From an uncultured Candidatus Saccharibacteria bacterium (GTDB lineage: Bacteria; Patescibacteriota; Minisyncoccia; Phycocordibacterales; CALRHW01): a DNA stretch of 64,000 nucleotides. The notes beneath the pieces are model-generated. The model was not told where the DNA came from and ran no database searches. It was given only the letters and a program-made list of their open reading frames with translations. Each line of letters opens with the position of its first letter. Position 1 is the first letter of the stretch. The position numbers and the translations under genes were made by a program. The stretch lies in contig CAYMIL010000001.1 of NCBI GenBank assembly GCA_964390845.1, forward strand, positions 102,326 through 166,325, read 5' to 3'. Below, one piece after another: positions 35,370-64,000 of this stretch.

Positions 35370-35594
35370 ATAAATAAAAAATTCCTCTTGTAATGAGGAA
35401 AGATAGCGACGTTTTATCTTTCCCAAACTGGGCCAGATGGAGCACCTTGTGTACACAGGTTGCTGAATGGTCATTGAGCTGGATCTCTCGCATTCTCTTG
35501 ATATATTCAGTTGTGATTACATTTTAGCACATGTTAATTATGTGGGGCAACAAAAGAAAAAGAGAGCGCTTTCGTGCTCTCTCATCCTATAGTG

Positions 35595-35667
35595 CTCCGC
35601 GGCTAGGGATCGAACCTAGGACCTAGCGATTAACAGTCGCTTGCTCTACCAGCTGAGCTACCGCGGA
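35595..35667 (-). tRNA. tRNA-Asn (anticodon GUU)
   Basis: Reverse complement TCCGCGGTAGCTCAGCTGGTAGAGCAAGCGACTGTTAATCGCTAGGTCCTAGGTTCGATCCCTAGCCGCGGAG folds as a cloverleaf. Anticodon loop CTGTTAA, T-loop TTCGATC. CCA not encoded. Confidence 0.85.
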
Positions 35668-42709: not shown

Positions 42710-45700
42710 TTAATCTATTTTCTTAAACCTGCCGGGTGTCAATACTTCATCCTTAATAACTGTTATTATTCTCTTTGTTGCGTTATCGAGAGGAACTAAA
42801 ACTTGGTCTTTATATCTTACCACCTGTTGATATTTCGAATCAAAATATTTCTCCCCGGTCCTGTAGGCATCCATTACCTTCTCCGCGGTAATACCGAACT
42901 TCTCCCGAATTATAATATTGTCTATTCCATGACTTGAGATCTCGATACCTTCTTTGATAAAAGCATCTTTGATAACATTGTATTTTTGCCTGAAATTGAG
43001 ATTGCTGCTACCAAATCCACTTTTCACAAAGTTCGTTGCAGACTCAACACCACCAATAGCAATCTTCTCGGCTCCTCCAGCAATCTTTACTCCAGTCTTC
43101 TTCTCAGCCCCTCCTGGCGTAAGCATCGATCCAACAAACAATGCACCCTCAAGAGATCTGGACCCTCCTTCTTCACCAACATCTGGAGAATATGCGACTT
43201 CTGGCCATAGAAACATTGTAGCAATTGCCGTCCAGAAGTTTCCATCTCGGTCCACATTCACCATTGGGTTGTTTCTCGCATAAGAATAGCTATTGAGTGA
43301 TTGTGGGTCCGCAAGATACATTGGAAGTTCAAGTCCTGTTTTATCTTTCAAATCTTTTGCGTTTCCGACCGCCAAGAATGCAGGATCCACAGATATAAAC
43401 CGCCCAGTGTTTCCCGCGTAGTACCTCGCTCCCATATAATTAAGCCCTGTCTCAGCATCATACTCATGCCCGGTAAACTTTCGCTGTTCGGAGTAGCCGA
43501 GACCGAAATCTAGGCGAGTCGCGCCATACGGATAATAGTCAACTGTCTCTGCTGAAGTACCAGCTGAGTTTGTGATCACGCTTGAACCACCAAGATGATC
43601 GTTGTGAATATACAGAATATCTGGCGTCGATGTACCGTGTGTTTCAATTGTTGCCACGACCTGGTCACCCAAAAACACGTGCGCGGTTGTCGTGGTGCCT
43701 CCAGAACCAGACAAGCCCGAATCATCCGACACCTCAATGTTCCAATATTTATTTGGATACACTGTCGTGTTCCGTCCAAACGCATAGACAACGCGGTCGC
43801 CAGCATGGTCGTAAGAATACGTTGTTGCCGCAGGACCCACAGTGAGCATCGTCGGTCTGTTTTTATAATCCCAGGTACTTGTTGCAATGCCATTGCCCGT
43901 CAGCATATTGCCATTGCGGTCGTATGTCAGTGTTCCCGTAACCGGAGTCGACACTACGGCGTGCGGGTTTGCATACTGACTTTTTACCGACGTGCTTGGA
44001 TACGTATATGTGCCGATATCAGACTTGCTGAGAATGTTGCCGATAGCGTCATAGGTATACGTCTCACGGTACGGCAACGTCGCTGCTGCCGTTGTCGATG
44101 CAGAAAGAAGGCGGTAGAGATTGTCGTAGACATATTCAACCGTACGCTGAATTGTTGTTGTGGCGTTCTCTTTAAGTAAGGTTATGTTTCCAACCTTGTC
44201 ATACGTATACTCAAGATCTTGATACTTCGTACCGCTTGCACCCGACTGCTTTGTTACTTTTTTAGTGAGACGATATAGCTTGTTTGCGTCGTATGTATTC
44301 GTTGCCTCAATTCCGTTTGCGTTTTTCTGGAAACTAACCTTGCCTTCTGGAGAGTAATCAAGGTCATCCACCAACACAGAGAACGACGTCGCACTCGGAA
44401 GCTTCTGTAACACACGCTCTACAAAACCACCGTTGTTGTATTCATACTGTATCTGCAAACCATCTGGATAGGTGATAAGTGTGGGGTTTCCCTGTCGATT
44501 AAATGCATACGCTGTGGTATATGTCGCACCAGATATTGTCCGACCTTCTTGCACCACACGCCCAGCGGTGTCATATGCATATGTGGTTGTTGCTCCCTGT
44601 GTCACAGCCTGGCACAATCTCGTCTTTCCAAATGCGCATGTATCATACGCGTACACAACATCGACACCCGGTGTGCCTGTGAAGTTTTCAGTAAGTGGCC
44701 GATTGATGGCGTCGTAAGTATATTGAATTGTCTGACCCTTTCCATCGACTACCTGCGTTATATTTCCAGCATTATCATAGGAATATGACCATGTAGAAAA
44801 TGAGGTGTCTGCTGGATCATGAAGATCCTGTGCGGTTAGACGGCGACCCAAACCGTCGTAGGTAAAGCTACGAATATTTCCGAGTGCATCGGTAATTTTT
44901 GTGAGTAAATTTAGACCATTATATTCGTAGTATGTGGAATACGTACTCGTGCCATTGTATTCATCAACCCGAATGAGGTTGCCACGAGCATCCTTGTACA
45001 ACTTCCTCTGATTGTTTAGCGGATCTTTTACAAGGACATCCCATCCGTCATATGTTGTTGTGGTGGTACCGAGATAATTTTTTGCAGAAGTCACACGTCC
45101 CAGTGCATCGTATGAAAACTCTTGTCGTAAATTATTATCAACTGGCGTAGAATCATAATCAGAACCATCAGTAACAAAAAATGGCAACGAGTGCTGTTTC
45201 TTCAAACCACGAGAATCGTACCCGATCTTTGTAACCGTGAAAGCGTCTTGGTCACCCTCTGACTGAACACGTTCTTGTATGACACGACCAAAGCCATCGA
45301 AATACGTGTATGTTGGCACAGACATTCCAGCATCAAGATATTGTGTTTTTACTACGCCTGTAGGAAATTGATTATCAAGATATGTATACGAACTTTTTTC
45401 CTCAAGTGTCGATACCAACGATGGACTTGAAACCTTTTCAGACAAGACCCTATCAAGGCCATCATAAACAAACTCTGTTACCTTTCCATTTTCATCAACA
45501 ATTTTTTTAGGTTTTCCAGATGAGTAATCATACTGAAAATCTTTGATGTGACCCACGGAATTGGTCGTCGTTGATGGATACAAACCATATACATCGTAAG
45601 CATATGTTGTGGTTGCTCCAAGGGAATTGATTTCACCAACAATCAGGCCTTTCTCATCGTAAATTGATTGCTCATTTACAAAACCCGATCCACTTTTCCA

Positions 45701-48367
45701 ATTTTCAATCTTTGTCTTATTACCAAACGACACAGAGCCTAATGGGAGACTGTCGTAATAAATCTTACTTTCAGACAATAATCCACTACCAACATCAACA
45801 AGCGACACACGCGAAGGCAGGACGATTCGACCATCTGAACTTGTTGCGTAAAAATATTTTTTAGTAGTTTTATCTGTACCAACATCGGAAAAACCCCCAA
45901 CACCATCACCGATAACTTTTCCCCACTGATCTTCTCTACTAATCGACAAAGCGAGATCGTCATACTCATATGTGGTTGCACGATCAACCGGAGTACCGCC
46001 TTCACCATATTGCCTTTCCAAAAAGGTTGTCAGTTTCAGAAATGACGATGTTGCACTTATTGAGGAATTATGACTATCCCACCTATTTTGAATACTGGAT
46101 AATATATTCCCCTCATTATCATATGTTTCAATAAGATACGGCCTTCCAATCTTTGAATAATTATCCTGAAACTCTCCAGTTGTGAATGACGTTTGATTTC
46201 CTTGGTGAAAATATTTTTTTGTAATATTCCCGATCGGATCTGTCTCAATGATTAATCCGAATCCAGAGACTTTCTTATCATGTGAATCTGCATAATATAG
46301 ATCACCCTCTGTATACACATAAGTAGTAGTTCCAACGCCTCCCACGCCGTCATGAACGGCAATCGAAGACACGGTTATTAGATTTTCTGGAAGGTTCGGA
46401 TTCAACACGCCGCCTACTCCAGTATATTGAGCTGACCCCTTATACGTTACCAATACAGAACCTTTTTGGGGCAATAAATAGTAATGGAGCTTATCCGAAA
46501 CATCTCCGATATGGCGATAAACTTTATTAATTACACCCTCACTCGTGCGTCTACTAATAAGTAAATCCATTAGACCATCCCCGTCTATATCAGCAAAACG
46601 AACGCCCTGATCGGTGTTATTGAAATTAAAAAATTCTGGAATATCCCACGAGGTATCGAGTGTCCAGCCGTGACCGGTGTTTAGATATACTTTTTTAACT
46701 TCGATATATGGATCACCGCCCCTCCAAGCACGAATCAAATCAACAAGTCCATCACTATTTATATCTTCAAATCTTACCCCACCGTCCGTTTGAGATTTGA
46801 AAATTTCTGGAATATCCCACGAGGTATCGAGTGTCCAGCCGTGACCAGTGTTTAGATATACTTTTTTAACCTCGATATATGGATCACCTCCACGCCAACT
46901 TTTTACAATGTCTGGCAACATATCGCCATTTACATCAATCAAATATACACCCCTATCATGCGTATCCTCAACAAAAAACTCTGGCAGACTCCACGAAGTA
47001 TCGAGTGCCCAACCGCTACCAGTATTTAAATACACAACCCTTACATCTTCAGGTGGCTCAGGGTTTCCTAACATTCCGCGCACAATATCTGGCAAACCAT
47101 CCCCATTCACATCAGCAATTCTAGTGCCAGAATCCTTATTGTAATTTATAATAAACTCTTCTGGAACGCTTACAGCAGGATCCTCAACCCAATCACCTTG
47201 AGAGCTTGTATAAGTAAAACTTCTTGCTGGCAACACCACCTCCTGGCTTTCAGATTCAAAACCTTTTTCTACTACCGATCCCAATAAATCTCTCGACTTG
47301 TTATTTCCCTTACTATACGTGAAATCGTAAGCTCTACTTAGAGTAGAACCAACATAAATATTAATTTTGTTAATTCTAAAAGATGTCGTGACTGGAAAAG
47401 AAGTTTTATATGAAATTGTAGATGTTGCCAAATTCTCTTTAAGAAATTCAACTTTGTACAGACCGCTATCTGTTCCATACCCCGTGTATTTTATATATTT
47501 CGGATAAATTTGCCCCCCATCTTTCTCATATTCATATTTTATAAAGTTGCCATTTGCATCTTGAATCGTGTCGACCATCCATCGAAACACATGACTTGTG
47601 GTCGTGGCATCGCCCTGTCGACTTTGTGAGGTTAACCCAAAAGAATACCTTGTACCATTTCTGTCATATACAGTCCATATATTATTAGTTAATTCATATT
47701 TTCCAAAACTACCATCATCTACACGCGGCAAAAATGTGCTCGTAGTAGCGCCCAACGATGCCACAGAAAGCTCTCCCGACATTGATGAGAAAAAATTGTT
47801 TTCTGTATAGATCTTTTCCACACCAGAACGATTAATACGCTCTATGTACGGAACATCAATAGACCAACCGAATCCTACATAACTACCAAGAGTTCCAGAA
47901 TTACTACCGTAAGAAATACGCAATTGTGGATTCATTCCATTTCTACCTGGCGGTATAACAATTGGAATTTCAGTCTGGAAAGATCCATCAATATCAGCTA
48001 CGTTAAATATTTTTATATTTTCTGGAGTTTTAATATATCCCGTTTCGTCCTCAGACGACTGCATAACTAAGCCCCCATCTTCACCACCCTCATCCCGCCC
48101 AGCGCTAGATGTTCCATCGACAGAAAAAATGGGCGTAACATCGCCCATTGCATCTCCACTATTAATTGTCGGTTTTTCTATAGACGAGTCCTTCTTTTCG
48201 GCCCCCTCTCCAGCAGAATCGGATGACGTATCGCCCTCAGAAGAAGATTCTGAATCGCCATCCTGAGATACAGACACCTCAAAAGCGCTCACCATACCAG
48301 CGGGAACAACAAAAGAAATAATGAGGATACTCGTAAGAAAACGTAGTAAAAATGAAGGTTTTTTCAT
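42710..48367 (-). CDS. Secreted RHS/YD-repeat polymorphic toxin with FG-GAP/VCBS-like repeats and variable C-terminal toxin domain
   Basis: 1885 aa. Signal peptide. Four DxNxDGxxD repeats (ADVNGDGLPDIV, IDVNGDMLPDIV, EDINSDGLVDLI, ADIDGDGLMDLL). Dozens of YD repeats (YxYDxxGR). RHS core end (YDAETGLNYMGARYYAGNTGRFISVDP...YARNNPMVNVDRDGN), then an unrelated roughly 240-aa C-terminus. Confidence 0.85.
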   Translation of the reverse strand: MKKPSFLLRFLTSILIISFVVPAGMVSAFEVSVSQDGDSESSSEGDTSSDSAGEGAEKKDSSIEKPTINSGDAMGDVTPIFSVDGTSSAGRDEGGEDGGLVMQSSEDETGYIKTPENIKIFNVADIDGSFQTEIPIVIPPGRNGMNPQLRISYGSNSGTLGSYVGFGWSIDVPYIERINRSGVEKIYTENNFFSSMSGELSVASLGATTSTFLPRVDDGSFGKYELTNNIWTVYDRNGTRYSFGLTSQSRQGDATTTSHVFRWMVDTIQDANGNFIKYEYEKDGGQIYPKYIKYTGYGTDSGLYKVEFLKENLATSTISYKTSFPVTTSFRINKINIYVGSTLSRAYDFTYSKGNNKSRDLLGSVVEKGFESESQEVVLPARSFTYTSSQGDWVEDPAVSVPEEFIINYNKDSGTRIADVNGDGLPDIVRGMLGNPEPPEDVRVVYLNTGSGWALDTSWSLPEFFVEDTHDRGVYLIDVNGDMLPDIVKSWRGGDPYIEVKKVYLNTGHGWTLDTSWDIPEIFKSQTDGGVRFEDINSDGLVDLIRAWRGGDPYIEVKKVYLNTGHGWTLDTSWDIPEFFNFNNTDQGVRFADIDGDGLMDLLISRRTSEGVINKVYRHIGDVSDKLHYYLLPQKGSVLVTYKGSAQYTGVGGVLNPNLPENLITVSSIAVHDGVGGVGTTTYVYTEGDLYYADSHDKKVSGFGLIIETDPIGNITKKYFHQGNQTSFTTGEFQDNYSKIGRPYLIETYDNEGNILSSIQNRWDSHNSSISATSSFLKLTTFLERQYGEGGTPVDRATTYEYDDLALSISREDQWGKVIGDGVGGFSDVGTDKTTKKYFYATSSDGRIVLPSRVSLVDVGSGLLSESKIYYDSLPLGSVSFGNKTKIENWKSGSGFVNEQSIYDEKGLIVGEINSLGATTTYAYDVYGLYPSTTTNSVGHIKDFQYDYSSGKPKKIVDENGKVTEFVYDGLDRVLSEKVSSPSLVSTLEEKSSYTYLDNQFPTGVVKTQYLDAGMSVPTYTYFDGFGRVIQERVQSEGDQDAFTVTKIGYDSRGLKKQHSLPFFVTDGSDYDSTPVDNNLRQEFSYDALGRVTSAKNYLGTTTTTYDGWDVLVKDPLNNQRKLYKDARGNLIRVDEYNGTSTYSTYYEYNGLNLLTKITDALGNIRSFTYDGLGRRLTAQDLHDPADTSFSTWSYSYDNAGNITQVVDGKGQTIQYTYDAINRPLTENFTGTPGVDVVYAYDTCAFGKTRLCQAVTQGATTTYAYDTAGRVVQEGRTISGATYTTAYAFNRQGNPTLITYPDGLQIQYEYNNGGFVERVLQKLPSATSFSVLVDDLDYSPEGKVSFQKNANGIEATNTYDANKLYRLTKKVTKQSGASGTKYQDLEYTYDKVGNITLLKENATTTIQRTVEYVYDNLYRLLSASTTAAATLPYRETYTYDAIGNILSKSDIGTYTYPSTSVKSQYANPHAVVSTPVTGTLTYDRNGNMLTGNGIATSTWDYKNRPTMLTVGPAATTYSYDHAGDRVVYAFGRNTTVYPNKYWNIEVSDDSGLSGSGGTTTTAHVFLGDQVVATIETHGTSTPDILYIHNDHLGGSSVITNSAGTSAETVDYYPYGATRLDFGLGYSEQRKFTGHEYDAETGLNYMGARYYAGNTGRFISVDPAFLAVGNAKDLKDKTGLELPMYLADPQSLNSYSYARNNPMVNVDRDGNFWTAIATMFLWPEVAYSPDVGEEGGSRSLEGALFVGSMLTPGGAEKKTGVKIAGGAEKIAIGGVESATNFVKSGFGSSNLNFRQKYNVIKDAFIKEGIEISSHGIDNIIIREKFGITAEKVMDAYRTGEKYFDSKYQQVVRYKDQVLVPLDNATKRIITVIKDEVLTPGRFKKID

Positions 48368-55167: not shown

Positions 55168-55713
55168 GTGAAAAACACTCTTCGCATCTGCGTACGTGGG
55201 ACACGTGTTGTCCTGCTTCTCGCGCTGATCGGCCTCGTGGCACTGTCGTTTAAGGGGGCGCTCAACGTGAGCTACCTACGTGTGGTAGCGCCAGAATACA
55301 AACTGAGGGAAACTGGGGTTCAGATTTCCCGGGGAGCACTGCGCTTTATCGATAACTGGTCACCCCAAACCGTCGCAGGAATTCAATCGTGGAATGGTTT
55401 CCGTTTCGACTTCGTGGTCTGGGATAGAGCACACAAGTACTACGATTCTGGAACCCTCTCGTTTTCAAGAGAAGGTGTTTACACCGGTTTCGGCTTCCAG
55501 TTCATCAACACTGGCGACGGTATGTACTACCGCACCTCACTGACACTCCCCCTCATCGCCTTCGTTGCCATCTGGCTTCTGTGGGAGGTGTGGTTCTGGA
55601 GAAAGCAGTTTGTGATGTGGCGCACCGCGCATCGCCGGACACACGGCCTGTGCACCCACTGCGCATACAAGCTCGGTAGCAACGTATGCTCAGAGTGTGG
55701 CACCAGAAACTAG
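55168..55713 (+). CDS. Hypothetical membrane protein with C-terminal CxxC...CxxC zinc-ribbon (GC-rich, GTG start)
   Basis: AAAGGAGG RBS 7 nt before GTG. Two TM helices. CTHCAYKLGSNVCSECG. Confidence 0.5.
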   Translation: MKNTLRICVRGTRVVLLLALIGLVALSFKGALNVSYLRVVAPEYKLRETGVQISRGALRFIDNWSPQTVAGIQSWNGFRFDFVVWDRAHKYYDSGTLSFSREGVYTGFGFQFINTGDGMYYRTSLTLPLIAFVAIWLLWEVWFWRKQFVMWRTAHRRTHGLCTHCAYKLGSNVCSECGTRN

Positions 55714-55746
55714 CAGCCTCGGACGAAAGTCCGAGGCTGTCTTTTT

Positions 55747-55920
55747 TTATTTCTTCTTTACGTCAGTAGTTTTTGTCTCATCAACATCTTTGAACGCGCC
55801 GCGCATATGGCGAATCGCTTCAACAATGCTTTTTGAAAGTTCTGGAATCTTCTTTGATCCAAACAACAAAATCGCAAGAATCGCGATAATGATGAGCTCT
55901 CTAGTTCCTAATCCAAACAT
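55747..55920 (-). CDS. tatA: Twin-arginine translocase subunit TatA/E
   Basis: 58 aa from the internal Met. MFGLGTRELIIIAILAILLFGSKKIPELSKSI matches the TatA TM plus amphipathic helix. Confidence 0.75.
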   Translation of the reverse strand: MFGLGTRELIIIAILAILLFGSKKIPELSKSIVEAIRHMRGAFKDVDETKTTDVKKK

Positions 55921-56632
55921 GGTTGTGTGTGTTACGGTTAATAAATAGGGTCGCTTCATATAATACCACAAGAGGCAACGCCATAGCCACTAGCGACACA
56001 CCATCTGTTGGAGGTAGCAAGGACACAACAAGAAATAGTATGAAAACGGCTGTTTTTCTACTGCTACGCAAGGTTTCTATAGACAGCGCCCCAAGACGGA
56101 CGAGTGCTGTTACAATAACAGGAAACTCAAATACCACACCAAGAAGAGACGCCGTGAGAAACAGTTGAGAAAGAAAAGCGCTTACATCCCAAATATTTTG
56201 AATGCCTAACGTTCTGTTGATCTGCGCAAGTAGGCCGAATGAATAATAGAGAATAAAGAATCCGTACAAAAAACCAACTACAAAAAGAAGGATACTCACG
56301 GGCACAGATACAAGGACCATTCGACGTTCTCGCGCATTGAGTGCCGGCATCAAAAAAGAAAACATAAAATATGCCACGATGGGTAGCGTACAAAGCAACC
56401 CCAAGAAAAAACCAATATCCATCGCCAAATCTGCAAACTGAAATGGCGACGTGGTCGCAATAGTTACCCCATCAAGCCTAAAGAATTCAAAAAAATGATC
56501 GAGGATAAATCCTGAAGAGAAAAAACCAACAATAAACACAACAATAAACACCAACGCGCTGTGATACAGCTTTACTCGTAGATACTCAAGATATGGCAGA
56601 AATTTCTGTATATGTTCGCTGAGTGGCGACAT
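55901..56632 (-). CDS. tatC: Twin-arginine translocase subunit TatC
   Basis: 243 aa, 6 TM. N-terminus MSPLSEHIQKFLPYLEYLRVKL typical of TatC. Confidence 0.85.
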   Translation of the reverse strand: MSPLSEHIQKFLPYLEYLRVKLYHSALVFIVVFIVGFFSSGFILDHFFEFFRLDGVTIATTSPFQFADLAMDIGFFLGLLCTLPIVAYFMFSFLMPALNARERRMVLVSVPVSILLFVVGFLYGFFILYYSFGLLAQINRTLGIQNIWDVSAFLSQLFLTASLLGVVFEFPVIVTALVRLGALSIETLRSSRKTAVFILFLVVSLLPPTDGVSLVAMALPLVVLYEATLFINRNTHNHVWIRN

Positions 56633-56817: not shown

Positions 56818-57429
56818 TTACTTTAACACGTCACTCACTGTGTCGATAACTTTAGAAATCTCCTTTGCCTTTTCTGAAATCTCGTCTGCCTTAGTATTGA
56901 CCGCTTCAATGATAGAGGTTGCCTCCTCAACTGTTGTCACTGCTGGTGCATCCGAAACTACAGCAACAGGCTCTTTTGTCTTTGGTTTTTTAGGCTTTCG
57001 TGTTGGTTTTGTTGTTGTGGGCGTGGTTGTCGAAGTGGCTGTATCGGTCGCAGCCGTACCTACTCCAGCAACTTCCCCAACATCTGGAAGCCCCTCCTGT
57101 GCACGAATTTCAGCAAGTGATGTATCAGTAATTGTGCCACCATTCATTTGAGCGAGGAGTTCATTGCTCATACGCACAAATACCGCCGCCTCATGTTTTG
57201 ATTCTGGATCAACTTTGAGAATCTCCTCACCAAGCTCTTTCGGGTCATTAAACTTATAGATCATCGAGCCATACTTTACATATTGAGCCTGATACGAACC
57301 AAGCTCAATATGTGGACGAGCGACATCGTAAAACGCCACAAGAGCCGTATCTTCGTATTCACCACTTGGTGATGCGACACGAAGATTATTTTGTTCTGCT
57401 ATGAGAGAATCTTGTTCGATGTAAATCAT
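56818..57429 (-). CDS. Hypothetical protein with Thr/Pro/Lys-rich low-complexity linker
   Basis: 203 aa. Globular N-domain, TSTTTPTTTKPTRKPKKPKTKEP linker, helical C-terminus. Confidence 0.4.
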   Translation of the reverse strand: MIYIEQDSLIAEQNNLRVASPSGEYEDTALVAFYDVARPHIELGSYQAQYVKYGSMIYKFNDPKELGEEILKVDPESKHEAAVFVRMSNELLAQMNGGTITDTSLAEIRAQEGLPDVGEVAGVGTAATDTATSTTTPTTTKPTRKPKKPKTKEPVAVVSDAPAVTTVEEATSIIEAVNTKADEISEKAKEISKVIDTVSDVLK

Positions 57430-57430
57430 G

Positions 57431-60088
57431 TTAGTTCTGTGTTAGAAGTGCACGTACTTTTATATTGTCCGCAAGCACGGTCGGTGTGTATCGAATATAT
57501 GTTGTCTCATTCGCCTTGTCTGTTGTGTTGTATGAACCCCATGTCTGGCCGTCGTCGGTAGATTTCTCAAATGTTCCAGAAGCAGATGCTGTGGTTGTGT
57601 CATCAAGAAGCAAACCATCTGTTTCTGCATTATACAACCTGATACGCAGTGTAGGCACTGTGCCACCAAATGCCGTTGAGAATCTCCACGCAAAACGCTT
57701 GCTTGTTATTGAAGACTGCGCGACAGACGGCTGGTAATGACTGTCTGTTGTATCGTCTTCATATGTACAACAAATATTGAAAATTCTAGCCGGCAAACAC
57801 ATTGAACCAATTGTTCTAAACTCCACCGCAAACTGCACTTCTGTAGTGGCGGTTGCCGCAGACAAATCCCCTGTCTGGTCAACGAGTGTCCATGTGCCTG
57901 AATTATCGCTAATTCCATTCGTTCTGTAGTAGATTCGCGCAGGCTCTGTTGGGAATGTAAGACCCGCATTTCCTAGATATGGTGCGTCGTTGAAAAATAC
58001 ACGAGAGAGCTTTGTTGCATTTGACGTTGAGAGGGATGGCGTAACGAGGCGCTGACTTACACTTCCTGTCGCATATGACCAGTCGGCACCAAGGGGTACT
58101 GTATACATGACGTTGACCAATGCGGTGGTACCTGTACGACAAATGTATACCAATCCATCCTCCGACCACACAGAAAGCGCGGCTCCCTGCGCACTCGGGT
58201 GCGGAACCGAATCAGAATCAGCAGTAGACTGATCTTGCTGAGCAGTATCCACAAGAAACATGTGATCGAAAGGGCGAGAACCAGATGCGTCATACTGCGT
58301 GAGATACGCTCTGTGGTGCGCGGTTGTTGTTGCAGACGTTGTGGTGATAATGAGGCGGTCAATTTGGTCGGCAATTTCTACCGCAGTAATGGCACCAGTC
58401 GCAGAATATGTAGCCGTACCTCCCGCAGGAATTTCTGTCATCGAATCCGCAGCCCATGTTGAACTTCCAGAGGTTATACCAGTAAGAGGCGCTCGGTAGA
58501 TCCTCGAGGAGGTAGCAAAATACAAACACTTCACACCAGAACCTGGACCATGGCTGAGAGTACCGATTCGACCGTTATTTGTTTGTGTCGTGTTTCCCGT
58601 TACTGTCTGTGTCGCAGTTACAAGTGTAAATGCAGAGGATGATTTTCCTGCACCGATACCACCAAGTGTAGTGAGGTCTGCTCTGATATTGTATTTATAC
58701 ACCTGTGGAGTGGTCGCCGCTTGCACCTCAATAATGTAGACAAACTGCTGTGTCCAACTTGCTCTATCATCAATAGCCAAACCACCCGCGATACCGTTAC
58801 CTCCCACGATTACATACGAAGTACCAGCGCCAATAGTTCCCGCTGATGCAGAAAGTGTAATAGATGTAGTACTTCCAACAGCAGAGATGGTGTACCATGT
58901 CGTGATTGACGCAGGATTGGTACTACCAAAACCAATACGACAACCCAAATGAGTGGCGGCCGCCCACGAAGTACCCGCACCAGTAACACCTGTTCCCGAC
59001 ACCGTCACAGTACCTGTTGAATAAATAGCATCGAGATCAACGAGAGAGTACACAGCTTTCTGTTTATCTACCGTAGTTGCCGCGGCTATTGTTTGGCCTC
59101 CAGAAATAAAATCATCATAAGACAAGCCAGTCGCCATAGAAAGACCTGCCGCCGCAACCACCACTGCGGTTGTTGCTGTCAAAATACGTAAATCCTCAAT
59201 GACGTAGGCCGTACCAGAAGAAATGGAGAGGCTTGGTGTCGTACCTCCGGTACCGCTTGCTGTCACCGTTGATTGGATTGTAATAGAAGTGTCCGAACTA
59301 ACTGCAGAAATATAATACCAAGTATCAATCTGCGTAGGGTCTGTACTACCAAAACCAATACGGGAACCAATAGGGATACGACTCGTAGACCACGCTGTAC
59401 TTGTGCCTGTTACGGTTGCTCCAGATACAGCGATAGTACCATCAGTATACTTTTCATAGGATGCGCGCAAACCTCTGATTGTTTGGTTACCTCCGCCGGC
59501 AGGATAGGTCAATGTAACAAACCCACGCCATGAAAAGAGCGATGTCGTTCTGTCATAGAGAAACAGAGAAATACGACGAGTAGCCGCGGCTGTGGCGTTG
59601 TCTGCAAGGAACACCCAATCGAGCTGGAGCGTCTTGTCGATTACATACGATGTACCTGAGCCTATTGTACCCGCAGAGGATGCGAGCGTCAGAGATGTTC
59701 CGCTCGGAATTGCGGCAATTGTATACCACGTTGTAATTGCCGTGGGGTCCGTACTACCAAAACCAATGCGGGCACCAACGGGCACGCCATCACTAAACCA
59801 TGATGTGCCGGAGCCCGTAACGGCCGTTCCAGAAACAGCAACGGTACCTGTGGAGTATGTGCCGTTTTTGTCGGCCCATGACACAACGTGCGGATAGATA
59901 CCCGGAATAGATGTAGATGTTTCAACCGGGCGCGCCACACCAATTTTTGCTGGCCCCGCAAATTTATCCGTCGGGTTTACTCCAGTGTATTGAAGTATCA
60001 AATCACCAAGAGTTGTCTTGGTTGAATCGTACGACGTATACGGGGTCGTCGCACCAGTAAACACATGTTCAATCGCTCGTTTTGCCAT
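57431..60088 (-). CDS. Large Thr/Ser/Gly-rich repetitive surface or secreted protein
   Basis: 885 aa. Three copies of a roughly 75-aa module (Y[ST][DT]GT[VI][AT]VSG[TA][AG]VTG.GTSW...RIGFGST[DN]P..I[TD]TWY.I[SA]A...[TS]SIT...S.GT.G.GT.YVI). Four-nucleotide gap to the upstream ORF. Confidence 0.55.
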   Translation of the reverse strand: MAKRAIEHVFTGATTPYTSYDSTKTTLGDLILQYTGVNPTDKFAGPAKIGVARPVETSTSIPGIYPHVVSWADKNGTYSTGTVAVSGTAVTGSGTSWFSDGVPVGARIGFGSTDPTAITTWYTIAAIPSGTSLTLASSAGTIGSGTSYVIDKTLQLDWVFLADNATAAATRRISLFLYDRTTSLFSWRGFVTLTYPAGGGNQTIRGLRASYEKYTDGTIAVSGATVTGTSTAWSTSRIPIGSRIGFGSTDPTQIDTWYYISAVSSDTSITIQSTVTASGTGGTTPSLSISSGTAYVIEDLRILTATTAVVVAAAGLSMATGLSYDDFISGGQTIAAATTVDKQKAVYSLVDLDAIYSTGTVTVSGTGVTGAGTSWAAATHLGCRIGFGSTNPASITTWYTISAVGSTTSITLSASAGTIGAGTSYVIVGGNGIAGGLAIDDRASWTQQFVYIIEVQAATTPQVYKYNIRADLTTLGGIGAGKSSSAFTLVTATQTVTGNTTQTNNGRIGTLSHGPGSGVKCLYFATSSRIYRAPLTGITSGSSTWAADSMTEIPAGGTATYSATGAITAVEIADQIDRLIITTTSATTTAHHRAYLTQYDASGSRPFDHMFLVDTAQQDQSTADSDSVPHPSAQGAALSVWSEDGLVYICRTGTTALVNVMYTVPLGADWSYATGSVSQRLVTPSLSTSNATKLSRVFFNDAPYLGNAGLTFPTEPARIYYRTNGISDNSGTWTLVDQTGDLSAATATTEVQFAVEFRTIGSMCLPARIFNICCTYEDDTTDSHYQPSVAQSSITSKRFAWRFSTAFGGTVPTLRIRLYNAETDGLLLDDTTTASASGTFEKSTDDGQTWGSYNTTDKANETTYIRYTPTVLADNIKVRALLTQN

Positions 60089-60110
60089 ACTATTGTTAAT
60101 TATACATCAA

Positions 60111-60716
60111 TCACACTTCTTTATAATCCACATTTATCTGTACCGTGGTCGTTCCGTCGATAACGCAATACAGTGATTCATCAACACCACCCTCGATATA
60201 GTTGGGGTGATTGTTTGCGCCATACAAACCGCCCGTTTTGGGTGATAGATACTTTTCATGATCCGTTCCGCCAGCGGTAAAACGAAACGAAACAGATGTT
60301 GCGTTTGCGTTGAGAGAAAAACGCGAGCTGTAGACACGAATTTTTTTGCCCGACGCCGGCGTGTGCACAATTCCCGACGAACTCAGTGATGTTGTGAGCT
60401 TTTCTACACCCTGTCCGCTCACAATCGCCTGCACGCTTTCGTCGGTCGCAGGATTTATGCGGTCATTTGAAGAGTCTTTAAGGCCAACGACGCTCGATGT
60501 GGGCGCACTTCCCACGACGAGAGCGTCTGCTTTCTTTGGAAAAAGCGATGCGGCAAACAATCCGAGGCCGGCACCGCCAAGAACTTTCAAAAAGAGACGC
60601 TTGTTTGAATCATCTATGTGCTCAACGAGCTCAGCAACGGCCGACGTGTCGACAGGAACATCGTTGCGCGTTTTGCGCACCAGTTTAAAGGAGAGTTTGT
60701 TAGGCAAAAAAATCAT
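60111..60716 (-). CDS. Hypothetical secreted protein with Tat-like (KR) signal
   Basis: 201 aa. SNKRLFLKVLGGAGLGLFAASLF resembles the S/T-R-R-x-F-L-K Tat motif, with KR in place of RR. Confidence 0.4.
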   Translation of the reverse strand: MIFLPNKLSFKLVRKTRNDVPVDTSAVAELVEHIDDSNKRLFLKVLGGAGLGLFAASLFPKKADALVVGSAPTSSVVGLKDSSNDRINPATDESVQAIVSGQGVEKLTTSLSSSGIVHTPASGKKIRVYSSRFSLNANATSVSFRFTAGGTDHEKYLSPKTGGLYGANNHPNYIEGGVDESLYCVIDGTTTVQINVDYKEV

Positions 60717-60845: not shown

Positions 60846-63359
60846 ATGAATAGTACACGCACACTCGCACGTTTAATTGTTTTTTCACTCCTCTCGCTGT
60901 CAGCACTTGTCGCATATGCGGACTATCAAATCGTATCTCCAGGCGACACTATTCGTCTTGGTGAGTTTGTATACGACGATGATTTCACACCCACCACAAC
61001 CCCATGTACCCTTACCATCTACGATCCATCTGGTAGCACGGAGGTAAATGCCGACTCAATGAGTGCCGACCTCAGCGGATGGCATTATTATGATTATGCC
61101 GTTGACTCAGGAGCAACAGAAGGTGTGTGGTCAGCGTTTATGTCTTGCGGAAGCGTGCCGACGGGAGATTTGGTAAAGGTAGATAAATCATTTAAGGTTG
61201 GCGCAACGACGGTAGCAAGCACCACAATCGCAAGTGCTGTCTGGAATAACGCATCTCGTACCCTCACATCCTTTGGCACACTCGTATCAGACACTGCCTC
61301 TGGTGTATGGGGCTCAGTAAGCAGGACACTTACTGGAGCAGGTCTCACATCGGGATCACTTGCTACTCTTTCAGATGTTCAGACAGCGACAAGCTCTCTC
61401 GCTTCTGCAATGACGACAAATACGGCGTCTATAAATTCAACCATCACCACCGCCTCAACATCTGTTGGCTCGCTCATCGCATCAGTACCGGCTAACGTCT
61501 GGTCATACTCTTCACGATCACTCACGACGTTTGGCACGCTTGCCGCAGATACCGCATCAAGCGTATGGGGTTCTGTGACGAGAACGCTCACGGGTGCAAA
61601 CCTCGACACTGGTTCCCTCGCAACATTGTCTGATGTGCAGTCTGCAAGCTCATCACTCGCGGCAGCGATTACCAACAACGGCACAACACTTAACACAGCG
61701 ATTACCAACGCTTCAACATCACTTGCAGCAACCATCACCACCGCCTCAACATCTGTTGGCTCGCTCATCGCATCAGTACCGGCTAACGTCTGGTCATACT
61801 CTTCACGATCACTCACGACGTTTGGCACGCTTGCCGCAGATACCGCATCAAGCGTATGGGGTTCTGTGACGAGAACGCTCACGGGTGCAAACCTCGACAC
61901 TGGTTCCCTCGCAACATTGTCTGATGTGCAGTCTGCAAGCTCATCACTCGCGGCAGCGATTACCGCAAGCACAGCAAGCATCACATCAGCAATCGCATCA
62001 CTCAACGACATTTCTGCTGATGATGTATGGCAATACGGTTCTCGAACACTTACAAGCGGTGGTGGAGGCGCAACAGCTGAAGAGGTCGCCGATGAAGTAT
62101 GGAATCGAGCATCAAACCAGCTTTCAACATCAGGAAGTATTGGAAAACTTCTCGCTGACAACATCGACGCGGCAATCTCAACTCGAGGCACAAGCAACAT
62201 AACTGCGGCGGATGTGTGGGCAGTCGGTACTCGAACACTTACAGACTACTCAACATCAAGCATTGCAAATGCAGCGGCACTTGCAGTGTGGGCAAACGGC
62301 GCTCGAACACTTACAGACTACGGCAACGATATCACTGCGGCAGATGTATGGAATACACTCACATCAACACTTACTTCAGTTGATTCAATCGGCAAACTCC
62401 TCACAGACAATATCGACGCAACAATCTCTTCTCGTGCATCACTTGCAACACAAGATGCTCAGTGGTTTGTCACAATGTCTGATTACTCATCTGTACAGGC
62501 AGGAGAAACATACCGAGCTCGCGTACAGGTACTCAACGAATCAAGCACACTTGAAAGCCCATTTGCAGCTCCACGTATAACACTCTACGACGCAGAGAGA
62601 AACACTGTCGTATCTTCTGTTGCGATGACATCAATCGGCACAGGTTTGTATGAATACACATATTCTGTTTCAAATTCAGCAGCGCAAGGTGTATGGGAAG
62701 CCGTCGTTTCAACACAAGTTGAAAGCGGAAAGTATGTTACAAACAATGACTACTGGATCGTTGCTGGCTCACCTGCTCAGGTTATCATCAACAGCGTAAC
62801 AGCAAACTCCCCTTCTGATATCAGCGCAAACGTCACAATTACCAACGAAGGTCTCACTGGATACGAATACCAGTATGAATGGTGCGTTGTTACAGACGCA
62901 AACAACCCGTGCGGTGGTGGCAATGACACATACCATGCAACAGGCGCTAAGTTTATTAACCCAGGCGAAGACTGGAATACCAACCTCACCGCGACAGTAT
63001 CTTCAGCTGGCTCATACTACTTCAAGCTCGTCGTATACTTCGGTACAGAGTCATCCGGCTCATCACGCTCATTTAGCGTAACTGGTGGTGGTAGCGGTGG
63101 AGGAAGCGGTGGTGGCGGAGGTGGAGGTGGGGGCGGTGGAGGTTCTTCAGCGGGAACAGCAGTTTCTGCATGCAAAGGAGCAGACTTCAACCATGACAAC
63201 TTCGTAAACTCAATCGACTTCTCTATCTTACTTGCGTTCTGGAAGACAAATTCACCATTTGCAAACAAGTGTGTTGATATCAACAAAGACACAAAGGTTG
63301 ATTCGATAGACTTCTCTATCCTGCTTTCTCAGTGGGGTACGCCAGGTAAAGCACTATAA
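60846..63359 (+). CDS. Secreted repetitive protein with C-terminal dockerin-like domain
   Basis: 837 aa. Signal peptide. About three 97-aa tandem repeats rich in RTLT and S/T. Gly-rich linker (GGGSGGGSGGGGGGGGGGGGSS). C-terminal duplicated Ca-binding-type segment DFNHDNFVNSIDFSILLAFW / DINKDTKVDSIDFSILLSQWG, as in dockerin type I. Confidence 0.65.
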   Translation: MNSTRTLARLIVFSLLSLSALVAYADYQIVSPGDTIRLGEFVYDDDFTPTTTPCTLTIYDPSGSTEVNADSMSADLSGWHYYDYAVDSGATEGVWSAFMSCGSVPTGDLVKVDKSFKVGATTVASTTIASAVWNNASRTLTSFGTLVSDTASGVWGSVSRTLTGAGLTSGSLATLSDVQTATSSLASAMTTNTASINSTITTASTSVGSLIASVPANVWSYSSRSLTTFGTLAADTASSVWGSVTRTLTGANLDTGSLATLSDVQSASSSLAAAITNNGTTLNTAITNASTSLAATITTASTSVGSLIASVPANVWSYSSRSLTTFGTLAADTASSVWGSVTRTLTGANLDTGSLATLSDVQSASSSLAAAITASTASITSAIASLNDISADDVWQYGSRTLTSGGGGATAEEVADEVWNRASNQLSTSGSIGKLLADNIDAAISTRGTSNITAADVWAVGTRTLTDYSTSSIANAAALAVWANGARTLTDYGNDITAADVWNTLTSTLTSVDSIGKLLTDNIDATISSRASLATQDAQWFVTMSDYSSVQAGETYRARVQVLNESSTLESPFAAPRITLYDAERNTVVSSVAMTSIGTGLYEYTYSVSNSAAQGVWEAVVSTQVESGKYVTNNDYWIVAGSPAQVIINSVTANSPSDISANVTITNEGLTGYEYQYEWCVVTDANNPCGGGNDTYHATGAKFINPGEDWNTNLTATVSSAGSYYFKLVVYFGTESSGSSRSFSVTGGGSGGGSGGGGGGGGGGGGSSAGTAVSACKGADFNHDNFVNSIDFSILLAFWKTNSPFANKCVDINKDTKVDSIDFSILLSQWGTPGKAL
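61446..61963 (+). repeat. Intragenic tandem direct repeat: 227 bp identical copies (61446-61672 and 61737-61963), 291-bp period
   Basis: Read directly. Identical nucleotide stretches encode the repeated SLIASVPANVWSYSSRSLTTFGTLAADTASSVWGSVTRTLTGANLDTGSLATLSDVQSASSSLAAAIT module. Confidence 0.8.
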
Positions 63360-63365
63360 AACGCC

Positions 63366-63990
63366 ATGAAAAAATACACACCATTTCTAACACTCACCCT
63401 ACTCGCACTCGCCTTTCTTGCGCGCCCCCTCTCGGCACAGGCTCTTTCTTTGTCTGTTGAGCCAACTCGACCCCTTGTATCTGGAGACACGATCCTTCTC
63501 AACGTACTCGTTGATACTGATAGTCCAGAAATAAACGTCGTAGACGGAACCATAAGCTTTGCTGGGCCATACAACATCGTTTCTCTCAATACAAATAGTC
63601 CCCTTTTCACATTGTGGCCAAACAAGCCGTCACTTTCGGGCAACACAATCACCTTTACCGGTGGCGCTGTTTCCGGTGTGTCTGGAAAAGGTCTCAAGCT
63701 ATTCTCTATCGCACTCAAACCCACATCAACAGGCTCACTTACTATCACCACAAAAGACGCTAAAGCATTTCTTGCAGATGGAGCAGGCACCTCTCTCCCT
63801 ATCACAGGAACAACAAAAACATTTACTATTGCACCCCGCGGATCAGTTGCAAAAGACGATCTCGCAACAACAATTCTTGGTGATACAACACCACCACGCG
63901 ACTTCTCTATCATCATTGGCCAAGATCAAAATCTCTACGATGGAAAATATTTCGCATCTTTTTACACAACAGATGACGAATCTGGTATAA
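63366..63990 (+). CDS. Secreted cohesin-like domain protein (3' end truncated by the window)
   Basis: Manual translation of frame 3: MKKYTPFLTLTLLALAFLARPLSAQA signal peptide, then LSLSVEPTRPLVSGDTILLNVLVDT...INVVDGTISFAGPYNIVSLN...LWPNKPSLSGNTITFTGGAVSGVSGKGLKLFSIALKPTSTGSLTITTKDAKAFLADGAGTSLPITGTTKTFTI. This is the hydrophobic periodicity and landmark pattern of a cohesin beta-sandwich. Absent from the supplied ORF track because it has no stop within the window. Confidence 0.5.
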
Positions 63991-64000
63991 ACCGATACGA

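Follow-up and report, generated by a model that had tools for sequence, protein, structure and literature searches.

Background

How could a bacterium bring to its surface proteins akin to the components of phage particles, and why would the genes for such proteins lie beside those of a protein translocase? These questions are raised by a 64,000-nucleotide stretch of DNA (the window) from an uncultured Candidatus Saccharibacteria bacterium (contig CAYMIL010000001.1), in which genes for four proteins of 201, 885, 203 and 59 amino acids (aa), here called P201, P885, P203 and P59, stand together with tatC and tatA, the genes of a twin-arginine translocation (Tat) system. Patescibacteria, also called CPR (Candidate Phyla Radiation) bacteria, make up much of the diversity of bacteria, have for the most part not been cultured and are presumed to live attached to other cells, and we know of almost no proteins that build their surface or make contact with their hosts. 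The locus provides a concrete, conserved and testable surface-protein candidate, whose cargo proteins are all 'hypothetical' and belong to no Pfam or NCBIfam family; a search of the literature found no description of it.

We report a computational analysis of this locus and of its relatives in cellular and viral genomes. The reading that we favour, and to which we assign a probability of about one half, is that a dedicated, minimal TatAC translocase exports a phage-derived surface complex that has folded in the cytoplasm, with P201 as the carrier that bears the signal; export, the formation of the complex and its final function are what we infer here.

Results

The signal peptide of P201

P201 reads S37-N-K39-R40-L-F42-L-K44, followed by the stretch VLGGAGLGLFAASLF, then PKKADA and L66. 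The initial annotation of this DNA had likened S-N-K-R-L-F-L-K and the hydrophobic stretch after it to a twin-arginine signal with Lys-Arg (KR) in place of Arg-Arg (RR), and both the sequence and the likeness hold: the motif [K/R]-R-x-[F/L]-[L/I/F]-K is present in 67 of 68 P201 orthologues at genome loci, as KR in 54 and as RR in 13. R40 is invariant, K39 is conserved in at least 90% and otherwise replaced by R, and F42 and K44 are likewise at least 90% conserved. The stretch behind the motif is rich in Gly and Ala, with a mean Kyte-Doolittle hydropathy of 0.84-1.72 over the next 18 residues in the motif-bearing orthologues, and gives way to a conserved P-[K/R/Q]-[K/R]-A-x-A, in which basic residues stand before A-x-A. 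Basic residues in this c-region are a feature by which Tat signals avoid the Sec pathway (PMC7317946). P201 combines the features of a Tat signal, namely the consensus S/T-R-R-x-F-L-K in its KR variant where the n- and h-regions meet, a weakly hydrophobic h-region rich in Gly and Ala, and a basic c-region with A-x-A, and cleavage is predicted after A65 (A-D-A). Among 988 distinct neighbouring open reading frames (ORFs), the motif together with an uncharged stretch marks 62 P201-family proteins, nearly all other motif matches being false positives within TatC helices. Structure prediction models the C-terminal domain of P201 as a jelly-roll of the viral type.

The extreme N-terminus of P201 has a feature of its own. 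Residues ~5-12 (window 60681..60704) hold a short conserved motif, N-K-x-S-F-[K/R]-L, which a variable spacer separates from the KR motif and which is repeated three times in the homologue at locus L223; it may be a chaperone binding site.

The translocase

Three positions, which correspond to F94, L99 and E103 of E. coli TatC, do not vary among the TatC proteins of these loci, and the one that corresponds to E15 is acidic (E or D) in 67 of 71 sequences; the TatC of the window has Y at this last position and E one residue earlier. In the structure of TatBC with a signal peptide, the first arginine reaches E15 of TatC via water and the second is salt-bridged to E103 (PMC13323110), so that invariant E103, F94 and L99 and a mostly acidic E15 fit the invariant second arginine and the tolerant first position of the P201 motif. 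Judged from these positions and from its Pfam match, TatC has the family's six-transmembrane architecture and keeps the residues that read the Tat motif. No correlation was found between the type of signal, KR or RR, and the residue equivalent to E15. The operon has one TatA-family gene, with no second in the operon region of the 64-kb window; some related loci carry two tatA. That P201 is a genuine Tat substrate and the locus a Tat cargo operon we consider probable.

Organisation of the locus

The genes are ordered P201, P885, P203, P59, tatC and tatA on the minus strand (Table 1). The stop codon of P201 and the start of P885 are 22 nt apart, the start of P203 lies 1 nt past the stop of P885, P203 and P59 are separated by 4 nt and P59 and tatC by 1 nt, and the last 20 nt of tatC are overlapped by tatA. 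By this tight packing and by their conserved order (below), the six genes are one transcription-unit-like operon, for which co-transcription is predicted. The terminator-like hairpin beyond tatA has a T tail only in the copy on the plus strand. The surroundings in the window are cellular by Pfam assignment (TypA/BipA, a bPH protein, an LD-carboxypeptidase, a response regulator and a giant RHS/SpvB protein), and a search of these flanks for phage hallmark genes (terminase, portal, capsid, integrase) found none.

The initial annotation had described three minus-strand genes, of 203, 885 and 201 aa, as a surface-protein island of secreted proteins downstream of tatC-tatA. The reading frames lie exactly where it placed them and the linkage to the Tat genes stands; the genes are in fact 5' (upstream) of tatC-tatA, transcribed in the same direction, and in place of a loose island there is one operon, which includes the 59-aa ORF that had been missed. 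As for secretion, P201 alone has a signal peptide, and for the other two proteins the claim depends on their proposed co-export.

Conservation across Patescibacteria

Searches seeded with P885 returned 1826 database homologues; the best 120 of these come from Patescibacteria metagenome-assembled genomes (MAGs), on contigs of up to 837 kb, and are 46-79% identical to P885. We analysed 78 loci, one genome per species. Many of the MAGs bear generic organism labels; the named records include Paceibacterota, Nomura-, Adler- and Magasanikbacteria and Parcubacteria. In a six-frame phmmer scan about 60 of the 78 showed P201, P885 (single or as three tandem paralogues), P203, P59 and tatC in this order, which is thus shared by Paceibacteria and related Patescibacteria; tatC is upstream or divergent in a few, and the genomic flanks of the cassette vary from genome to genome. 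In the 57 loci where all five proteins could be compared, mature P201 has a median identity of 74% to that of the window and P885 one of 67%; the medians are 58% for P59, 53% for the P203 N-terminal domain and 45% for TatC. Since the cargo is the more similar in the same 57 genomes, it is, on this measure, under stronger constraint than the translocase.

Two variant arrangements were also seen. A subset of the Patescibacteria genomes (L035, L051, L053-L055, L068, L070, L072, L073) has three tandem P885 paralogues between one P201 and one P203-P59-tatC, and these paralogues fall into separate groups in a rough neighbour-joining tree. In L060 and L061, which represent a divergent lineage, tatC-tatA are transcribed away from a protein with a 'p138' domain (described below), a P885 homologue and P59; a convergent protein of 276-280 aa has several predicted membrane helices, KR/RR-x-F-F-K at about residue 160 and then the linker motif of P201.

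Other cassettes beside tatC

Starting from the translocase leads to a wider picture. An alignment of 14 of the TatC proteins retrieved 80 metagenome loci, and we counted as informative the 38 in which 1.2 kb or more lies upstream of tatC. A cassette lies directly upstream of tatC in 36 of these 38, of the P885 type in 13 and of an alternative kind in 23, the other two having neither. The alternative cassettes consist of large signal-less proteins, headed in the inspected loci once more by a P201-like protein with a KR signal. Thus L223 reads P201-like, 873 aa, 606 aa, 81 aa, 183 aa, 373 aa, tatC, tatA, tatA, and L238 reads P201-like, 949 aa, 288 aa, tatC; the P201-like proteins of both have D-K-N-K-R-x-F-L-K and the same linker motif, joined to a different C-terminal domain. 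In the alternative cassette the gene immediately 5' of tatC encodes a signal-less protein with a glucosaminidase domain (PF01832; 32 bits, where the cutoff is 30.2), and as the substrate of such a peptidoglycan hydrolase is outside the cytoplasm, the enzyme must leave it. A PHROG search of the alternative-cassette proteins gave no match. As read from these gene orders, the tat genes of this clade are almost always preceded by a signal-less cassette headed by a KR-signal protein, and that of the window is one of at least two cassette types; the strict proposal that Tat is dedicated to the P885-type cassette only was rejected on these loci, among which there are at least two alternatives to it. 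Loci with alternative cassettes, which often have two tatA, include L223 (1..10900), L238 (5500..13276), L189, L231, L194 and L234.

Relatives in phages

Full-length, collinear homologues of P885, with 35-52% identity and a length of ~710-720 aa, occur on 137 IMG/VR contigs, of which 80 loci were examined, and at three loci (L045, L077, L082) that are genome matches outside Patescibacteria. The alignment spans residues 1-885 except for the extra repeat modules (see below). These homologues stand among phage genes. In L082 the gene for the terminase large subunit is followed by one for a protein of 794 aa, by the P885 homologue, and then by a P59 homologue and a major head protein. In L113 the order is terminase, portal, protease and major capsid protein, proteins similar to head-decoration ones, the P885 homologue and an ORF of 64 aa that resembles the N-terminus of P203; next come the head-tail adaptor, the major tail protein and an ORF of tape-measure size (822 aa). 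The cassette lies between holin and endolysin in L099, and after a portal gene with a Mu F domain in L100. In four viral loci (L099, L100, L114, L118) the product of the adjoining upstream gene has the linker and jelly-roll of P201 at its end and has no signal peptide, and in some 36 others the upstream gene carries the unrelated 'p138' domain. A homology of the P201 jelly-roll and p138 was considered and none was detected by hhalign, which makes them alternative partners. Neither tatC nor tatA was found in any of the 80 viral loci. In phage genomes, homologues of P885 and P59 thus keep company with those of the P203 N-terminal domain and the mature part of P201, as a set that has neither signal peptides nor tat genes.

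The family comprises 232 clusters at 50% identity (E ≤1e-30) and had no match by tblastn in 50,697 GenBank phage records; a phage-context homologue had no match in PHROGs either, where the family is present by its repeat module only. Within one phage clade the homologues are 71-86% identical and of near-constant length, and at least one Tat-linked CPR copy (L080) is 66-70% identical to a viral group, so that exchange between cells and viruses continues. In a crude neighbour-joining tree of 186 homologues the Tat-linked copies are spread over a few clades, not gathered in one clean clade, and a single capture event is not established. On these genomic contexts P885 belongs to an uncharacterised family of phage virion modules, with homologues among the structural genes of bona fide phages; by the same comparisons the module is phage-related by descent, and its copy in the window is a cellular, Tat-linked operon.

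Modules and fold of P885

The three copies of a module of about 75 aa that the initial annotation recognised in P885 are present, and each of them closes with YVI. Identity to copy 1 is 56% for copy 2 and 69% for copy 3, and the three share 36 invariant columns out of 75. Between orthologues whole modules have been gained or lost, the family core keeping only the middle copy, and in the structural model the modules are small beta domains. Thr, Ser and Gly make up 37% of P885; the label of low complexity, which had been given to the proteins of the cluster, suits only the Thr/Pro/Lys stretch of P203, since P885 yields a confident all-beta model (AlphaFold2 with a 60-sequence alignment; predicted local distance difference test, pLDDT, 83.7; predicted template modelling score, pTM, 0.78) that superposes on known six-bladed beta-propellers (NHL / PAL / sialidase-like). 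P885 has no hydrophobic N-terminal segment and no signal peptide. Its sequence found nothing meaningful in Pfam, NCBIfam or PDB sequences, where a semaphorin match with an E-value of 0.58 merely hinted at a propeller.

The suggestion that the proteins be compared with phage structural databases has a divided answer. PHROG 1591, 'tail fiber protein', matches P885 in three stretches (E 2e-18) that are confined to the modules, so that membership of the whole protein in a tail-fibre family does not follow. Foldseek matched P885 to proteins of uncultured tailed phages, and the BFVD match is to phage propeller proteins of the endosialidase type. Similarity to phage structural proteins at a site flanked by phage genes had also been named as telling against a surface island; the similarity is there, in the homologues of real phage genomes, and the flanks in the window are cellular. 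Some family members add PKD and BNR sialidase-like domains, or ConA-like lectin domains, which point to an extracellular role for the family; no fusion of P201 and P885 was found among its long members.

Two other identities for P885 were tried and set aside. That of a nozzle like gp12 of phage T7, with a gp11-like adaptor, was given a probability of 0.6% by hhalign of the family alignment against T7 gp12, and is disfavoured as well by a P885 homologue in a siphovirus that has a major tail protein and, downstream, the 822-aa tape-measure-sized ORF. That of a major capsid protein was discarded on finding that the phage genomes with a homologue have capsid genes of their own (phrog_9953 in L082, phrog_10 in L113).

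P203 and P59

Conservation in the P203 family is confined to the N-terminus, and lengths range from 59 to 348 aa, mostly 180-300. Small phage ORFs resembling this N-terminus come after the P885 homologue (L113 11916-12110, L100 9623-9814), and we propose that P203 is an accessory subunit or assembly factor. At L063 (3349..5898) one ORF matches both P885 and P203, which may be a gene fusion or a frameshift or assembly artefact. P59, which public gene callers also predict, is conserved at both ends (MALTDVNFQ.GEGQDF ... IFIMSE); its phage-context homologues directly follow the P885 homologue in L045 and L082, as do those at the tat-adjacent genome loci L060 and L061.

Neighbouring genes and other features

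The divergent neighbour of the operon encodes an 837-aa protein with MG2 and dockerin domains. Homologues of its N-terminal MG2 part, with Sec-type signal peptides, directly adjoin the cassette in 66 of the 78 loci from genomes and in none of the 80 from viruses, so that the conserved locus amounts to seven genes. The dockerin gene reported by the initial annotation is thus confirmed by its Pfam match and as a member of the conserved locus; the accompanying 'cohesin' is not, as the ORF in question (~63420..64000, plus strand), which runs off the end of the window, had no Pfam match at E ≤0.01. This ORF begins with a Sec-like signal (MKKYTPFLTLTLLALAFLARPLSAQA...), and by eye similar ORFs lie elsewhere downstream of tatA after an ORF of ~200-220 aa (for example L189 11862-12887). 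Inside the MG2/dockerin protein are two repeats that hardly differ from each other (...WSYSSRSLTTFGTLAADTASSVWGSVTRTLTGANLDTGSLATLSDVQSASSSLAAAIT...), and ~20 Gly/Ser residues in a row precede the dockerin; homologues of the protein range from ~500 to 2300 aa.

Further away, an ORF of 1885 aa at 42710..48367 (minus strand) has SpvB, FG-GAP and RHS-repeat domains (Pfam) and looks like a giant protein of the Tc/RHS polymorphic-toxin type, here in a small-genome bacterium. A SAM (S-adenosylmethionine) riboswitch (RF00162, 56 bits, above the gathering score) at 35411..35507 on the minus strand adjoins a tRNA-Asn at 35594..35667.

Table 1. Features at and around the Tat-linked operon, in window coordinates
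Feature	Position	Strand	Description
P201	60111..60716	-	201 aa; operon gene 1; long n-region, Tat-type signal peptide, disordered linker, C-terminal jelly-roll domain
P201 Tat-type signal core (aa 37-65)	60522..60608	-	S-N-K-R-L-F-L-K, h-region VLGGAGLGLFAASLF, c-region P-K-K-A-D-A
P885	57431..60088	-	885 aa, without signal peptide; N-terminal domain, then a six-bladed beta-propeller core into which small beta modules are inserted, then a C-terminal beta-sandwich region
P885 repeat module 1 (aa 78-152)	59633..59857	-	extra copy; absent from phage-context and many CPR orthologues
P885 repeat module 2 (aa 214-299)	59192..59449	-	sole copy found in all family members (alignments)
P885 repeat module 3 (aa 356-429)	58802..59023	-	lineage-specific extra copy
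P203	56818..57429	-	203 aa, without signal peptide; N-terminal ~90-aa conserved domain, variable Thr/Pro/Lys-rich linker, C-terminal helix
P59	56634..56813	-	59 aa, acidic; between the P203 gene and tatC
tatC	55901..56632	-	243 aa; Pfam TatC 3.1e-37
tatA	55747..55920	-	57 aa; last gene of the operon; Pfam TatA_B_E 5.6e-11
Terminator-like hairpin	55713..55740		12-bp, GC-rich; between tatA and a convergent 181-aa ORF
MG2/dockerin protein	60846..63359	+	837 aa; Sec signal, N-terminal MG2 (Pfam 4.4e-14), repeats, poly-Gly linker, C-terminal Dockerin_1 (2.9e-7)

Discussion

A proposed route to the surface

The proteins of phage particles fold and assemble in the cytoplasm, and the display of such a module at the cell surface therefore needs a pathway for folded proteins. 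We propose that an ancestor captured a particle-surface cassette from a phage, whose proteins fold and assemble in the cytoplasm, that the N-terminal part of a phage partner protein was swapped for a Tat signal peptide, and that the cassette came to be placed within a tatAC operon. P885 would fold inside the cell and dock on the jelly-roll of P201, probably with the help of P203 and P59 as assembly or linker factors, and the folded complex would cross the membrane through the minimal TatAC with P201 as carrier, by a 'hitchhiker' mechanism. Signal peptidase would then cut after A-D-A65, and the complex would be retained at the cell surface together with the Sec-exported MG2-domain protein from the neighbouring gene. 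Its role there would most likely be binding or attachment, to a ligand or a host cell, and possibly also the processing of glycans, in bacteria that live as episymbionts. A broader suggestion, which we put forward as a tentative one, is that Paceibacteria and related Patescibacteria keep Tat mainly for interchangeable cassettes of this phage-derived, particle-surface kind, pulled across the membrane by a carrier with a KR signal and used by episymbionts to bind, and perhaps breach, their host cells.

Several observations weigh against this proposal. In E. coli, lysine is poorly tolerated in place of arginine in the RR pair (PMC7317946), and the n-region before the P201 motif is unusually long, at 26-111 aa. 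With 93 kDa P885 is a large passenger, the more so if it is oligomeric; no SLH or other cell-wall anchoring domain was recognised that would hold it; and the very high conservation of the sequences is atypical for surface adhesins and receptor-binding proteins. The phage homologues vary in genome position (head module, lysis module, after the portal gene), and the direction of transfer, from phage to cell, is read from distribution alone.

Alternative explanations

The signal is found in P201 alone, and it could be that P201 only is exported, with P885, P203 and P59 acting in the cytoplasm as a propeller enzyme or as an assembly or regulatory factor for P201, and the linkage to tatAC reflecting co-regulation. 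Six-bladed propellers such as PAL, lactonases and phytases are often enzymes, and high conservation would suit one. We nevertheless regard this as unlikely: the phage homologues sit among particle structural genes, in phages the gene with the P201-type domain is directly upstream of the P885 homologue, family members carry PKD, BNR and lectin domains of the extracellular type, and the alternative cassettes at the tat locus include the signal-less peptidoglycan hydrolase, which must exit the cytoplasm. Export of the whole complex could also be accepted with another purpose, the propeller being mainly a hydrolase or lyase of glycans or cell walls, descended from a particle-borne phage depolymerase and acting on the host envelope or on environmental polysaccharide. 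The relationship of the propeller to sialidases, PAL and lactonases, the many invariant charged residues of P885, its strong conservation in cells and phages alike, the relatives fused to BNR sialidase-like domains, the holin-endolysin setting of the L099 cassette and the glucosaminidase of the sister cassettes all agree with such an enzyme. No catalytic family was matched in Pfam, NCBIfam or PDB sequences, though, and a fusion to BNR domains suggests that the core itself is not the sialidase; we hold a chiefly enzymatic complex to be quite unlikely.

Were the complex a regular surface layer (S-layer or coat) of Paceibacteria and not a discrete adhesin, one would understand why the locus is near-universal and strongly conserved in the clade; viral jelly-roll cement and turret proteins form lattices, and S-layers are reported to be prevalent in Patescibacteria (bioRxiv 10.1101/2024.05.28.596244). 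A large subunit for which Pfam finds no SLH or other anchoring domain and which has no signal peptide fits this poorly, and it is unusual for a core lattice protein to give way, in related genomes, to a wholly different cassette in this position; we judge a surface layer improbable. The initial annotation had itself raised a degraded prophage tail-fibre region as the alternative, that is, a decayed structural region with no cellular function. The PHROG match on the modules, the Foldseek matches and the true homologues in phage genomes are what such a remnant would show. It would hardly keep the same six genes in about 60 genomes with different flanks, with ORFs intact and cargo identity above that of TatC; nor does it accord with flanks in the window that hold no phage hallmark genes, with a Tat signal peptide confined to the cellular copies or with the lack of any match in the GenBank phage records, and we consider decay very improbable indeed.

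Significance

If the folded complex is indeed exported by TatAC, structural proteins of phage origin that need to fold before export would join the known classes of Tat cargo as a new one, and the apparatus would be a new kind of Tat-dependent, virus-derived structure at the cell surface. The locus suggests why minimal genomes that lack respiratory cofactor enzymes retain Tat at all. It also supplies a natural, clade-wide set of KR signals for the study of Tat recognition, and its analysis defines a family of phage proteins, widespread and highly conserved, that cultured phages lack.

Comparison with known systems

In Bacillus subtilis, phoD-tatAd-tatCd encodes a minimal TatAC dedicated to the substrate encoded with it, a single phosphodiesterase with an RR signal of its own. 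Its TatA and TatC work without TatB in a cell of the monoderm type. The present locus likewise has its putative cargo in one operon with tatA and tatC, and would match it in doing without TatB in a monoderm-type cell; here, though, there are four phage-related cargo proteins, with a mostly KR signal on one of them only, and the cassette is interchangeable between genomes. Natural Tat signals of the KR type, in which Lys replaces the first Arg, are found in Salmonella TtrB and the chloroplast Rieske protein. They keep the second Arg and x-F-L-K, as P201 does, but in the P201 family KR is the majority state across a clade (54 of 67) and RR the minority.

Domesticated phage modules are a further point of reference. 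Tailocins or R-pyocins, gene transfer agents and extracellular contractile injection systems keep the tail or head assembly entire and leave the cell by lysis or through dedicated release systems. They resemble the present operon in being cellular loci that stem from phage particle genes under purifying selection for a function of the host, and differ from it in that only a small particle-surface cassette is involved here, coupled to a general translocase by an acquired signal peptide. Phage propeller proteins that act as receptor-binding proteins or depolymerases, such as endosialidases, are like P885 in being large all-beta proteins built on a propeller, to which some add lectin or sialidase modules; the P885 family has no sequence similarity to characterised examples and is absent from GenBank phage records, and within one phage clade its conservation is far higher than is usual for receptor-binding proteins.

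A precedent for the proposed crossing is the [NiFe] hydrogenase, whose large subunit is carried through Tat by the signal-bearing small subunit (Rodrigue et al. 1999, as cited in PMC13323110). The hydrogenase agrees with our proposal in having the signal on one subunit, a larger signal-less partner from the adjoining gene and a crossing of the pre-assembled pair, and differs in that there is no redox cofactor here, that the passenger is a 93-kDa beta-propeller and that the complex is deduced from gene order and phage synteny. In haloarchaea, the major subunit TafA of the Tat-fimbriae ('tafi') has been shown to be transported by Tat (PMC11821415). These fimbriae, like the apparatus that we propose, form a surface structure with Tat-exported subunits encoded in one gene cluster (export being predicted in our case), but are archaeal and filamentous, have a predicted donor-strand exchange and no phage ancestry, and are unlinked to tat genes (PMC11821415). 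New in the present locus is the combination: a phage-derived, signal-less cargo, a KR signal that extends across a clade, and cassettes that replace one another beside the tat genes of a major uncultured lineage.

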